A DNA stretch of 64,000 bases from Archaeoglobus sp. JdFR-37 (lineage in GTDB: Archaea > Halobacteriota > Archaeoglobi > Archaeoglobales > Archaeoglobaceae), in the NCBI GenBank assembly GCA_002010215.1, contig MTMY01000003.1, positions 62,001 to 126,000 on the forward strand, written 5' to 3'. A program made the position numbers and the translations under genes. This document shows, piece after piece, positions 14,743-18,509 of this stretch (its first letter is position 1; every line of letters starts with the position of its first letter). A model generated the notes under the pieces. That model ran no database searches and was not told the origin of the DNA. It saw only the letters and a list, made by a program, of their open reading frames with translations.

Positions 14743-15498
14743 CTAACCTCTAAGCTCTTTAACTTTCTCAAGGATCTTTTTCATGGTGGGAGCAGCTTTA
14801 TCATGTATCACCACATCGAAAAGGTAATCCTTGTCGGTGGGTTCAGCATTAATCAGTATCAGCTTCGCCCCATGGTCTTTGGCCATAAATGGGAGGTGTG
14901 CGGCGGGATACACTACCAGAGACGTTCCAATTGCGATAAAGACATCGCATTTCCTTGACTCCTCCATAGCTTCGCTCAGAATTCCTGAAGGGAGAGGTTC
15001 GCCGAAAAATACAACTCTCGGCTTCAGTAACTCACTCCCGCAGTTCTTGCATGCAGGGTTGTCTATAATTTTCTCTATGTCTTCCCAGACGTAAATAGCA
15101 CCGCACTTCAAACAGTCAACATAGCTCATGGAGCCGTGAAGCTCAAGAACTTTCTTGCTTCCAGCTCTCTGATGCAGCATGTCCACATTCTGGGTTATGA
15201 CAGCCTTAACAATCCCCATCTCTTCCAGCTCGGCTATCGCCTTATGTGCATCATTGGGCTCAGCCTTAACCTTAACCAGCAGGTCTTTCGAGAACTCCCA
15301 GAATGCTCGGGGGTTCCTCATGAAGCCTGAAATGGATGCGACCTCCTCAGGATCGTACTTCTCCCACAGACCTCCTTTCCCTCTGAAGGTGGGGATACCA
15401 CTCTCAGCAGAAATTCCTGCTCCTGTAAAAACCACAGCATGCTTCGCTTTGGCAATGATCTCCGCTGCCTTCCTAATCCGGTCGCTAATTCGGTCCAT
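14743..15498 (-). CDS. cobB: Sir2 family NAD-dependent protein deacylase
   Basis: GAGISAESGIPTFRG, TQNVDMLH, ELHGS, Zn-binding CxxC pairs, GTSLVVYPA. Confidence 0.95.
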   Translation of the reverse strand: MDRISDRIRKAAEIIAKAKHAVVFTGAGISAESGIPTFRGKGGLWEKYDPEEVASISGFMRNPRAFWEFSKDLLVKVKAEPNDAHKAIAELEEMGIVKAVITQNVDMLHQRAGSKKVLELHGSMSYVDCLKCGAIYVWEDIEKIIDNPACKNCGSELLKPRVVFFGEPLPSGILSEAMEESRKCDVFIAIGTSLVVYPAAHLPFMAKDHGAKLILINAEPTDKDYLFDVVIHDKAAPTMKKILEKVKELRG

Positions 15499-15573
15499 GC
15501 AGATATGACAACTTCCACCAACAAAAAGTTTATTAATTGACTCGCATTTGGCTGAGCTTAGGGAGGGATAAAC

Positions 15574-16206
15574 ACGGCAAGAAAAAGACAGGTAAGGGTA
15601 AAGGATAAGTGGACTCTCAAGAAGTGGTTCACCCTCATCGCTCCTGAATACTTTGGAATGGCAGAGCTGGGCGTAACGCCTGCCGACGATGCGGAGAAAG
15701 TAGTCAATAGAACCGTTGAGATAACTTTGGCGGAGCTGGCAAACGATTACTCAAACCAGAACCCTTACAAGAAACTTATCTTCAAGGTTTACAGGGTTGC
15801 GGGCGATAATGCATACACCAAGTTCCACATGTACGAGCTTACAAGAGACTACCTGAACAGTCTTACAAGGCGCAGAACTAGCAAGATCGAGGATGTTGTG
15901 GACGTTATAACAGCAGATGGCTACGTGCTGAGGGTCAAGCCAGTTGCATTCACAGTTAAGAGGTGTAAGACCTCACAGAGAAGAGCAATTAGAGCAGTGA
16001 TGAGGCAGATTGTTGAAGAGACGGCCAAGAAAGAGAACTTCGTCCAGTTCCTCCAAGAATGCGTCCTTGGTAAGATCCCCAGTGAGATTTACAAGAATGC
16101 CAAGAAGATCTACCCGCTTAGAAGGGTGGAAATCAGAAAGATAGAGGTTCTGAAGGAGCCCAAACCTGTCGAAGTTGAAAAACCAGTGGCAGAGGCAGTG
16201 GCTTAA
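15574..16206 (+). CDS. rps3ae: 30S ribosomal protein S3ae (eS1), probable non-AUG start
   Basis: eS1 sequence (LTRDYLNSLTRRRTSKI, KIYPLRRVEIRK). The conserved KDKWxxKxW lies upstream of the first ATG (15658), in frame back to ACG at 15574. Confidence 0.92.
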   Translation, partial: TARKRQVRVKDKWTLKKWFTLIAPEYFGMAELGVTPADDAEKVVNRTVEITLAELANDYSNQNPYKKLIFKVYRVAGDNAYTKFHMYELTRDYLNSLTRRRTSKIEDVVDVITADGYVLRVKPVAFTVKRCKTSQRRAIRAVMRQIVEETAKKENFVQFLQECVLGKIPSEIYKNAKKIYPLRRVEIRKIEVLKEPKPVEVEKPVAEAVA

Positions 16207-16238: not shown

Positions 16239-17072
16239 ATGCTATCTTTTCTTGCTATTCTTTCTGTAATGGTAATATGGGCAGGTAGCTTCATCTTTAT
16301 CAAGTTCGGCATTTCTGACATCACCCCACTAAGCCTATCTTTCTGGAGATTTATTATTGCTACGCCACTTCTAATCCCCTTCATCTCGAAACGACCGTCT
16401 CTAAGGGAAATTCCCGGCTTCATAGTTCTGGGAATTTCAGGGGTTTCGTTGCTTTACTACCTTCAATTTACCGCTCTCCTTTACACCACTCCCACAAACG
16501 CATCCATACTCATCAACACCGCTGTAATATTCATTGCCGCTTTTTCAGCTATATTCTTCAACGAAAGGCTGAAATTGCAGCAGTATCTTGGAATTTTAGT
16601 CGCCTTTGCTGGCATCGTTCTCGTAATTTCAGAGGGTAAGCTGAGCATATCCAGCACCTCTATTAAAGGCGACCTTATGATGATTGCCAACGGCCTACTC
16701 TGGGCAATTTACACTGTATATGGGAAGAAATTCATGGAGAAGTATTCGGCCATTGAACTTGTATTCTGGTCCTTTGTATTCGGAGTTATTACGCTGACAC
16801 CCTTTGTTGCTATTAATGGCCTCGACTTTCCGTCAGTTTCCCTTACCTGGGTTTCTATACTCTATCTCTCAGTTCTCTGCTCCGGCTTTGCCTATGTGGT
16901 CTGGTATCACGCTGTTGAAAGACTGGGAGCAGCAAAGACATCGGTCTTCATCTATCTGATACCCCTTTTCACTGCTATGTTCTCAGCTACAATTCTGGGA
17001 GAAGTTATAACAGCATTCAAAGCAATAGGAGGATTTCTGACAATTGTGGGGCTTTACATGGCTGAAAAATGA
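16239..17072 (+). CDS. DMT/EamA family transporter
   Basis: About 10 hydrophobic helices in two EamA repeats. Confidence 0.9.
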   Translation: MLSFLAILSVMVIWAGSFIFIKFGISDITPLSLSFWRFIIATPLLIPFISKRPSLREIPGFIVLGISGVSLLYYLQFTALLYTTPTNASILINTAVIFIAAFSAIFFNERLKLQQYLGILVAFAGIVLVISEGKLSISSTSIKGDLMMIANGLLWAIYTVYGKKFMEKYSAIELVFWSFVFGVITLTPFVAINGLDFPSVSLTWVSILYLSVLCSGFAYVVWYHAVERLGAAKTSVFIYLIPLFTAMFSATILGEVITAFKAIGGFLTIVGLYMAEK

Positions 17073-17252: not shown

Positions 17253-18509
17253 ATGGGATTTGAGTGGTATCTTGATTTTGTGGATAAGAGTTACAAACCA
17301 TCAGATGAGCTGATCTGCGTTTTCAAGGTTGAACCTGATGGAATAAGCATAGAAGAGGCTGCAGGCAGAATTGCCTCGGAGAGCAGCGTTGGAACCTGGA
17401 CTACGCTCTCCAAACTCCCTGAAAGGATTAAGAGATTGATGGCCAAAGCCTTTGAAATCGATGGAAATGTTGTAAAGGTCGCCTATCCTCTGGACCTCTT
17501 TGAAGAGGGTAACATTCCCCAGTTGCTCAGCAGCATTGCTGGCAACATCTTTGGTATGAGAGCTTTGAAAAGTCTGAGGCTGGAAGATTTACACTTCCCC
17601 CCAGAATATTTGAAGCATTTCAAAGGCCCTCAATTCGGAATTGAGGGAGTTAGAGAGCTCCTGGGCATCTATGACCGCCCTCTTACAGCGACTGTTCCGA
17701 AGCCCAAAGTTGGATATGATGTAGATGAGTACGCTGAGGTTGCCTATGAAGCGCTGAGCGGCGGCATAGACATCCTGAAGGATGATGAAAACCTCACCAG
17801 CCAGCCCTTCATAAGGTTCGAGAAGAGGCTAGAGAAAGTTATGAAAGTAATCGAAAAAGTTGAGGCAGAGACAGGAGAGAAGAAGACATATCTGTGCAAC
17901 ATAACTGCAGAGACAGAAGAAATGCGAAAAAGGGCAGAACTCATAGCGGATTACGGTAATGAGTACGTTATGGTGGACATCCTGACCGCTGGCTGGGGTG
18001 CTGTACAGACAGTGAGAGACTTTTGCGAAGAATTGAGTTTAGCAATACATGCTCATAGAGCAATGCATGGAGCATTTACGAGAAAGGAGGATCACGGAAT
18101 AAGTCTGGGAGTGATAACCAAGCTGGCAAGAATTGCTGGAGTTGACAACATGCACGTGGGCACAGGTGTTGGAAAAATGGCTGGTGAAGTACCAGAAGTT
18201 GTTAAGCTCAAAGAAATATGCACATCTCAGTGTAAAGAAGCAGAACATATCAAAAGAGTGTTTCCCGTCTCAAGTGGCGGCCTGCATCCAGGACTGATTC
18301 CAGATGTCATGAGGCTTTTCGGTATGGATGTTATAATACAGGTGGGTGGCGGTGTCCACGGGCATCCAAATGGCACGAAAGCTGGAGCAAAAGCTCTGAG
18401 GGATGCGATAGATGCCGTTATAGAGAAAGTCTCTCTGGAAGAAAAGGCTGAGCAAAGCAAGGAGCTGAAAGAGGCTCTAGAAAAATGGGGATATATAAGC
18501 CCCAAATAG
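17253..18509 (+). CDS. rbcL: Form III ribulose-bisphosphate carboxylase
   Basis: ESSVGTW, GIDILKDDE catalytic motif, HRAMH, SGGLHPG, GGGVHGHP. Confidence 0.95.
   Translation: MGFEWYLDFVDKSYKPSDELICVFKVEPDGISIEEAAGRIASESSVGTWTTLSKLPERIKRLMAKAFEIDGNVVKVAYPLDLFEEGNIPQLLSSIAGNIFGMRALKSLRLEDLHFPPEYLKHFKGPQFGIEGVRELLGIYDRPLTATVPKPKVGYDVDEYAEVAYEALSGGIDILKDDENLTSQPFIRFEKRLEKVMKVIEKVEAETGEKKTYLCNITAETEEMRKRAELIADYGNEYVMVDILTAGWGAVQTVRDFCEELSLAIHAHRAMHGAFTRKEDHGISLGVITKLARIAGVDNMHVGTGVGKMAGEVPEVVKLKEICTSQCKEAEHIKRVFPVSSGGLHPGLIPDVMRLFGMDVIIQVGGGVHGHPNGTKAGAKALRDAIDAVIEKVSLEEKAEQSKELKEALEKWGYISPK

Follow-up and report, generated by a model that had tools for sequence, protein, structure and literature searches.

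The question raised by rps3ae, the gene for ribosomal protein eS1 in Archaeoglobus sp. JdFR-37, is which codon starts its translation, as the earliest ATG, GTG or TTG in its reading frame is an ATG at 15658, located 28 codons 3′ of an ACG that occupies the position of the start codon in related genes. Comparison with relatives strongly supports the ACG as the start, and an ACG start on this core ribosomal gene appears to be real, conserved and probably selected. The window referred to below is the whole stretch of DNA that was analysed, 64,000 nucleotides of contig MTMY01000003.1, and the features around the start site are the following.

14743..15498, − strand: divergent Sir2/CobB deacylase gene, which shares a short intergenic region with eS1 (context only)
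15522..15536, + strand: BRE-like CAAAAAG (15522-15528) and TATA-like TTTATTAA (15529-15536), a predicted archaeal promoter, kept in most genomes of the order in the aligned upstream regions
15558..15560, + strand: predicted transcription start, placed from the TATA distance, for a leader some 14-16 nt long, which would be nearly all Shine-Dalgarno (SD) sequence and spacer
15559..15561, + strand: in-frame TAG, which shuts the frame 5′ of eS1
15562..15569, + strand: strong SD sequence GGAGGGAT, identical at −12 to −5 in all nine ACG genomes
15568..15570, + strand: in-frame ATA overlapping the SD, a rival start and the choice expected from table-11 annotation
15574..15576, + strand: ACG, the probable eS1 start codon, at the ATG-homologous position and 7 nt past GGAGG
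15574..16206, + strand: rps3ae/eS1 coding sequence, 210 aa and stop, identified by PRK04057, PF01015, archaeal eS1 chains in the PDB and strand 17-22 of an AlphaFold model
15658..15660, + strand: internal Met29 ATG without an SD, the start that ordinary gene finders assign, giving a shortened product of 182 aa

The BRE and TATA labels on 15522-15536 follow the archaeal consensus, and the segment presumably functions as a promoter. The Sir2/CobB-eS1 arrangement is also present in G001, G004, G020 and G032 (that is, in g1 and in all three g4 loci looked at), and on the 3′ side eS1 is followed by genes for a DMT-family transporter (16239-17072, + strand) and a type III RuBisCO (17253-18509, + strand).

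The eS1 reading frame and its start signals

A profile search of the JdFR-37 genome (G000) returns a single eS1 match, and the gene is that of a full-length archaeal ribosomal protein eS1 (S3Ae). When started at the ACG, the protein matches the NCBIfam model PRK04057 (S3ae) over residues 2-207 of 210 with 279.6 bits, above the curated cut-off of 198, and covers profile positions 2-191 of Pfam PF01015; the solved archaeal eS1 chains in the PDB align with it from residue 2, and the first strand of its AlphaFold model (mean pLDDT 82) consists of residues 17-22. Re-reading the letters of the window confirms the arrangement given in a preliminary description of this DNA, with TAG at 15559-15561, GGAGGG at 15562-15567, six further nucleotides (ATAAAC) and ACG at 15574-15576 on the + strand, after which the eS1 frame reads ARKRQVRVKDKW and contains no ATG, GTG or TTG before 15658. 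Since the TAG closes the frame, a start further upstream would be unusable. The same description held that a start at 15658 would truncate the conserved N-terminus by 28 residues, which the profile and the alignment bear out. The Pfam match would then begin at profile position 27, with positions 2-26 lost, and the missing residues would include the invariant KDKW motif; in an alignment of 46 relatives the invariant columns are A2, K10, D11, K12, W13, K16, W18, L21, A23, P24, E25, Y26 and G28.

The spacing between GGAGG and the start codon in the JdFR-37 genome has its mode at 7 nt (121 cases), with 84 cases at 8 nt, and the ACG is situated 7 nt and the ATA 1 nt past GGAGG. In a start-site matrix, for which 953 canonical starts served as the training set, the ACG has a score of +8.5, the ATA of −3.7 and the ATG at 15658 of −6.2. 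Calculated with the archaeal anti-SD consensus, the 16S 3′ end being absent from the assembly, the duplex of GGAGGGAT with the anti-SD has an energy of −12.5 kcal/mol, which is within the strongest 10% of the genes in this genome, and the ATG at 15658 has no SD and a duplex energy of −0.9 kcal/mol.

The TATA-like box is located 45 nt ahead of the ACG, and genes of the same genome that lack an SD peak at a TATA-to-start distance of 29-31 nt. The eS1 leader is accordingly predicted to be about 14-16 nt long in JdFR-37 and 11-16 nt across the nine genomes with an ACG. Such a short leader would leave the in-frame TTG codons that are present upstream of the ACG in G004 and G032, 5′ of the predicted transcription start, outside the transcript. 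Among genera, the eS1 mRNA seemingly alternates between a leaderless form, with 30-32 nt from TATA to ATG and no SD, and a short SD-led form, the promoter motif remaining unchanged, and many ATG genera appear to be leaderless at eS1. The leader folds no better than shuffled sequences in four of four folds (z −0.7 to +1.6) and has no Rfam match; control by a ribosomal leader (r-leader) was considered and rejected, given a predicted leader of about 14 nt with neither a conserved structure nor an Rfam match. A scan for sigma-70 promoters and terminators, with a model that does not cover archaeal promoters, gave counts at chance level.

Conservation of the start codon

A match to eS1 was found in 91 of the 94 genomes of the order Archaeoglobales, of which two without the 5′ end were excluded and 89 compared. 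In the alignment of rps3ae 5′ regions that the preliminary description had suggested, the homologous start position, directly before the A-[RK]-[RK] motif, is occupied by ATG in 74 genomes, TTG in 6 and ACG in 9. The ACG carriers span three genera, g1 (2 of 2 genomes), g4 (6 of 6) and g18 (1 of 1), and Archaeoglobus sp. UBA234, JdFR-32 and JdFR-27 are among the named records. The codon is also seen in 8 of 17 metagenome eS1 loci, part of them duplicates of the order genomes, and three more proteins of the g1+g4 clade (P0002, P0022 and P0076) have Thr at the start site, while the sister genus g17 has TTG (four genomes) and ATG (one) behind the same SD. Judged by these comparisons, a near-cognate codon stands at the start-homologous position with no usable canonical start; in G071, an in-frame GTG is found 8 codons downstream of the ACG.

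The SD varies together with the start codon. GGAGG precedes the eS1 start in all nine ACG genomes, in each case at the modal distance of 7 nt, in six of six TTG genomes and in two of 73 ATG genomes (one having been dropped for its short contig), and the median duplex energies of the three sets are −12.6, −11.8 and −4.7 kcal/mol, respectively. In the eS1 trees g1 and g4 form a clade (support 97/87 and 92/83), the placement of G018 not being settled, and while the eS1 tree needs two changes to ACG, the AU test (p = 0.31) does not reject a single ACG clade; if all nine genomes share one origin, there may have been reversions to ATG in between. The nine ACG genomes are kin (the g1+g4 clade and G018). 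Outside the order, the start codons of eS1 in a non-random subset of 67 genomes, read by eye, are ATG in 37, TTG in 23, CTG in 4 and GTG in 3, with no ACG. A CTG start, three codons past an in-frame TGA, is found in four of five sampled genomes of the family f12 (L344, L345, L346 and L349), and in two of these four no canonical codon is available ahead of the KDKW motif. With ACG in Archaeoglobales and CTG in f12, the near-cognate eS1 start would therefore have arisen at least twice.

The ACG is kept more strictly than the synonymous sites of the gene. The codon is found in nine of nine genes and is never ACA, ACC or ACT. At four-fold sites of the first 135 codons, a restriction made because an unaligned one-residue indel depresses the pairwise identities of G069-G071, the third base is fixed in 1 of 32 columns and the median identity is 0.365. 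The third base also varies in all six conserved Thr columns of the nine-gene alignment. With synonymous sites near saturation, the codon therefore appears to behave as a start and not as a Thr codon, and the pattern argues for selection keeping ACG. Constraint extends to other bases around the start, codon 2 being GCG in eight of the nine genes, so that the four-fold comparison overstates the constraint on the ACG somewhat.

Taken together, it is highly probable that the ACG marks the start position of eS1, a small chance of editing included, and very likely that translation begins at this codon, which is outside the listed prokaryotic starts and absent from the start list of genetic-code table 11. 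The preliminary description had named the ACG or the adjacent ATA as the initiation codon. The first part of this claim is well supported by the conservation, by the distance from the SD and by the absence of any other start that could be used, and the second is disfavoured by the spacing, the matrix score and the overlap with the SD. That the true start is an ATA, ATT or ATC two codons 5′, with the ACG an ordinary Thr codon, is very improbable: such a codon is in frame in all nine ACG genomes and permitted by table 11, and NCBI annotates two proteins of relatives, P0105 and P0107, from the corresponding Ile codon, but it is located 1 nt past GGAGG with its AT paired in the SD duplex, scores −3.7 against +8.5 for the ACG, has the same AT out of frame or ahead of TTG and ATG starts in relatives, and is followed by a codon that varies (Asn, Ser, Lys, Glu) while the ACG stays fixed. 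There is likewise only a slight chance that C-to-U editing makes an AUG from the ACG in the mRNA, the same chemistry turning the CUG of aIF1A into UUG. A single C-to-U change would turn either conserved near-cognate start, ACG or CTG, into a canonical codon, and chloroplasts provide a precedent (PMC9845219). However, editing of this kind could not rescue the ATA and ATC starts of the same genome, and a motif scan of the JdFR-37 genome gave two matches, labelled by eye as a dCMP-deaminase-like ORF and a chance match resembling a tRNA synthetase. No mRNA editing of the ACG-to-AUG type is known from archaea.

An assembly error or a true start at Met29 is barely credible. Although the public gene calls for this DNA hold the 182-aa form, Met29 has no SD and the 28 codons upstream of it are under strong protein constraint. 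As for the letter C15575, for which the preliminary description had advised a check of read support, the contigs (not raw reads) of four of four runs from three studies show no other letter there, those of X3 and X4 differing at five other places and those of X1 and X2 possibly being the source of the window's DNA itself. Since eight other genomes also share the ACG, an assembly error at 15574 is very unlikely.

Near-cognate starts in other genes

Among the ribosomal protein genes compared, the near-cognate start is specific to eS1. In 30 genomes, chosen mostly for a non-ATG eS1 start, the control genes eS6, eS19, eL15 and eS8 have a near-cognate start in none of 120 gene-genome pairs and a non-ATG start in 14, and in the other eight ACG genomes these four genes start with ATG in 31 of 32 cases. 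Within the JdFR-37 genome, 59 of the 2061 predicted genes have an orphan strong SD, behind which near-cognate codons number 14 against 9.0 expected, CTG accounting for 4 against 0.8 in what is a noisy scan. Genome-wide relaxed initiation in JdFR-37 was rejected, near-cognate codons having no broad enrichment behind the orphan SDs.

A CTG start is found in the gene for aIF1A, which in JdFR-37 is located at C5:4804-5094 on the − strand (L168; compared loci L178-L257), with the CTG behind a GGTG-type SD. Among 51 genomes of the order that were examined, out of 90 with a match, aIF1A starts with CTG in 43 (42 by script and G004 reassigned by eye), TTG in 7 and ATG in 1, and beyond the order 21 of 30 loci have CTG as well. 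The codon immediately ahead of the CTG is a stop in G017, in G037 and in one G042 copy. The gene for aIF1 (PF01253), in turn, was not found in the contigs of JdFR-37, but its flanking genes are missing from this 94.5% complete genome too, which indicates an assembly gap. Of the 94 genomes of the order, 88 have the aIF1 gene, the other eight ACG genomes among them, and ATG is its start at all loci whose 5′ end is intact. Loss of aIF1 as a cause of the ACG start was therefore rejected, its absence from JdFR-37 being a likely assembly gap.

Several other genes of JdFR-37 have near-cognate codons at the start position. A CbiG-like gene (G000:C22:5825, + strand; L173, L278-L280) has ATA where G032 has ATG, and the ATA is found in four of six genomes (G000, G001, G018 and G007), 8 nt past GGAGG. 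The gene for topoisomerase VI-A (C18:33715, + strand, L169) has CTG in g1, that is, in JdFR-37 and also in G001, and a canonical start in relatives. ATA is seen in the ZPR1 gene (C16:24303, − strand, L174), ATC in the gene for an HD protein (C41:4193, + strand, L172) and CTG in an HMG-CoA-synthase-like gene (C5:50300, + strand, L170), all of which begin with ATG, GTG or TTG in relatives and are near-cognate in JdFR-37 only, among the genomes compared. The gene for RaSEA, the archaeosine radical SAM protein (G000:C9:31503-32501, − strand, L175), has no in-frame canonical start where G001 has ATG; its 5′ end may contain a frameshift or an odd start, and with no clear near-cognate codon on inspection it was dropped as a candidate.

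Possible roles of the ACG start

The best explanation of the conserved ACG, to which an even chance is given, is that selection keeps a weak codon behind a strong SD to hold the output of eS1 down. The codon would offset a strong promoter-like site as well as the very strong SD. The mRNA made from the TATA promoter would then have a leader about 14 nt long, almost all of it SD and spacer, and pairing of the SD with the 16S 3′ end would bring the ACG to the P site for Met-tRNAi to read with one middle-base mismatch, so that the protein would begin Met-Ala-Arg-Lys as in relatives. The strong SD, common to TTG- and ATG-starting relatives, is likely older than the ACG, and its prior presence would have made the weak codon tolerable. 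An ATG revertant would have the best codon behind a very strong SD and would overproduce this one protein, and reversion would therefore likely be selected against; the change from ACG to ATG is a single transition, and ATG is unseen in eight of eight g1+g4 genomes. The output of eS1 would also track the policing of start codons by aIF1 and aIF1A, as a side effect and not as the selected purpose. Against the proposed lowering of output, such an effect is counter-intuitive for an abundant ribosomal protein, PMC5622118 describes selection towards AUG in highly expressed genes, the nine ACG genomes are close kin to a large extent, the g1+g4 clade making up eight of them, and the near-cognate codons at the start of unrelated JdFR-37 genes fit simple tolerance.

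Such tolerance is the content of an alternative in which the ACG is the start but nearly neutral, having been fixed by drift behind the strong SD without any selected role. The near-cognate ZPR1 (ATA), HD protein (ATC) and HMG-CoA-synthase-like (CTG) genes of JdFR-37, with their canonical relatives, are in line with it, as is the alternation of TTG (four genomes) and ATG (one) behind the same SD in g17. It is nevertheless improbable, as the ACG is held in all eight g1+g4 genomes and in P0002, P0022 and P0076 despite near-saturated synonymous sites, and the 14 near-cognate codons behind orphan SDs against 9.0 expected amount to no broad enrichment. Rather unlikely, too, is a feedback sensor, an extension of the fidelity-sensor idea of the preliminary description, in which initiation at the ACG rises with laxer start stringency or with 30S subunits that lack eS1 and which, together with the CTG-started aIF1A, would be an archaeal counterpart of infC- and eIF1-like autoregulation. 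In structures of the Pyrococcus initiation complex, eS1 is next to the SD helix (PMC7531240, PMC9932298) and lines the chamber in which the SD duplex is housed (PMC7531240), although PMC7005279 calls the neighbour of the SD helix eS3, and aIF1 has been reported to discriminate against AUU in Sulfolobus (PMC4705826) and to reject non-AUG complexes (PMC6237735, PMC4705826). A sensor would also fit the CTG start of aIF1A within the order (43 of 51 genomes) and beyond it (21 of 30 loci), the second, independent near-cognate eS1 start in f12 (CTG, four of five) and the absence of near-cognate starts from the control ribosomal genes (0 of 120). On the other hand, aIF1 itself is ATG-started wherever its 5′ end is intact, non-translation genes in JdFR-37 are also near-cognate at the start position, and neither a conserved leader structure nor an Rfam match is seen; with 74 of 89 order genomes having ATG at eS1 and many apparently leaderless, any sensor loop would therefore be dispensable. 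eS1 is not known as a fidelity factor, and no such role was found in the parts of the literature consulted on initiation. The retention of the ACG against reversion, the position of eS1 at the chamber of the SD duplex and the conserved CTG of aIF1A speak for some regulatory logic. The weak start across a wider lineage that marks infC- and eIF1-type systems is not seen for eS1 (ATG in 74 of 89, ACG in 0 of 67 outside the order); aIF1A comes close to having it. Equally doubtful is a broader stringency circuit in the phylum, by which weak starts behind strong SDs would make aIF1A and eS1 in proportion to the looseness of the 30S subunit; it would take in the CUG of aIF1A in most of the phylum and, at eS1, the ACG of three Archaeoglobales genera, the CUG of another family and the UUG of many more.

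The proposed level-setting by a weak eS1 start has partial likenesses among known systems. As with the AUU start of bacterial infC (IF3) and the poor-context AUG of eukaryotic eIF1, both described as autoregulated (PMC4705826), a translation gene has a conserved sub-optimal start amid otherwise good signals; however, IF3 and eIF1 are fidelity factors, whereas eS1 is a structural ribosomal protein with an ACG in three genera, and the likeness is in form only. The combination of a weak codon with a stronger and more conserved SD is also known from the SD-compensated GUG and UUG switches of Belinky, Rogozin and Koonin (PMC5622118), although these cover GUG, UUG and rare CUG and AUU, "ACG" does not appear in the main text of that study, and in eS1 the non-AUG codon is retained. 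Eukaryotic and viral ACG initiation shares with eS1 the codon, the initiator tRNA and the mismatch at the middle position; PMC4705826 lists ACG with the strongest non-AUG start codons of yeast, and Sendai virus P/C is a case of ACG initiation according to the title of a reference in PMC9845219. There, in contrast, ribosomes come to the codon by scanning, and it mostly serves as a minor alternative start, whereas the ACG of eS1 would be positioned by the SD and is apparently the sole start. Plastid rpl2, psbL and ndhD, one of them a ribosomal protein gene, likewise have a genomic ACG at the start (PMC9845219) but need C-to-U editing machinery, and the eS1 case is known here from DNA.

Archaeal start codons named in the consulted part of the review PMC7531240 are AUG, GUG and UUG only. 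CTG starts are given for 5% of Methanosarcina small ORFs in PMC11456600, in the accessible text of which ACG does not occur, the portions seen of PMC8211752, PMC2718504 and PMC11698992 mention no archaeal ACG start, and the tables of PMC7247131, as far as available, contain rps3ae only as a gene downstream of S15 leaders in other classes. A literature search, judged on titles, abstract openings and selected passages, found no report of an archaeal ACG start or of a non-AUG start of eS1 or aIF1A, though supplements of archaeal Ribo-seq or proteomics studies may contain such cases. If true, the use of a conserved ACG to start a core ribosomal protein would widen the range of codons that archaeal ribosomes use in vivo. 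The occurrence of ATG, TTG and ACG behind the same SD would form a natural series for the stringency of aIF1 and aIF1A, and it bears on whether weak starts are selected in archaea, a question listed as open in PMC4705826. The public protein entries seen for the ACG genes all start elsewhere than at the ACG, being extended, ATT-started or cut at GTG or Met29. One entry, P0026, whose source name is Archaeoglobus sulfaticallidus PM70-1, has Thr at the start site, and a cultured carrier of the ACG is therefore probably available.
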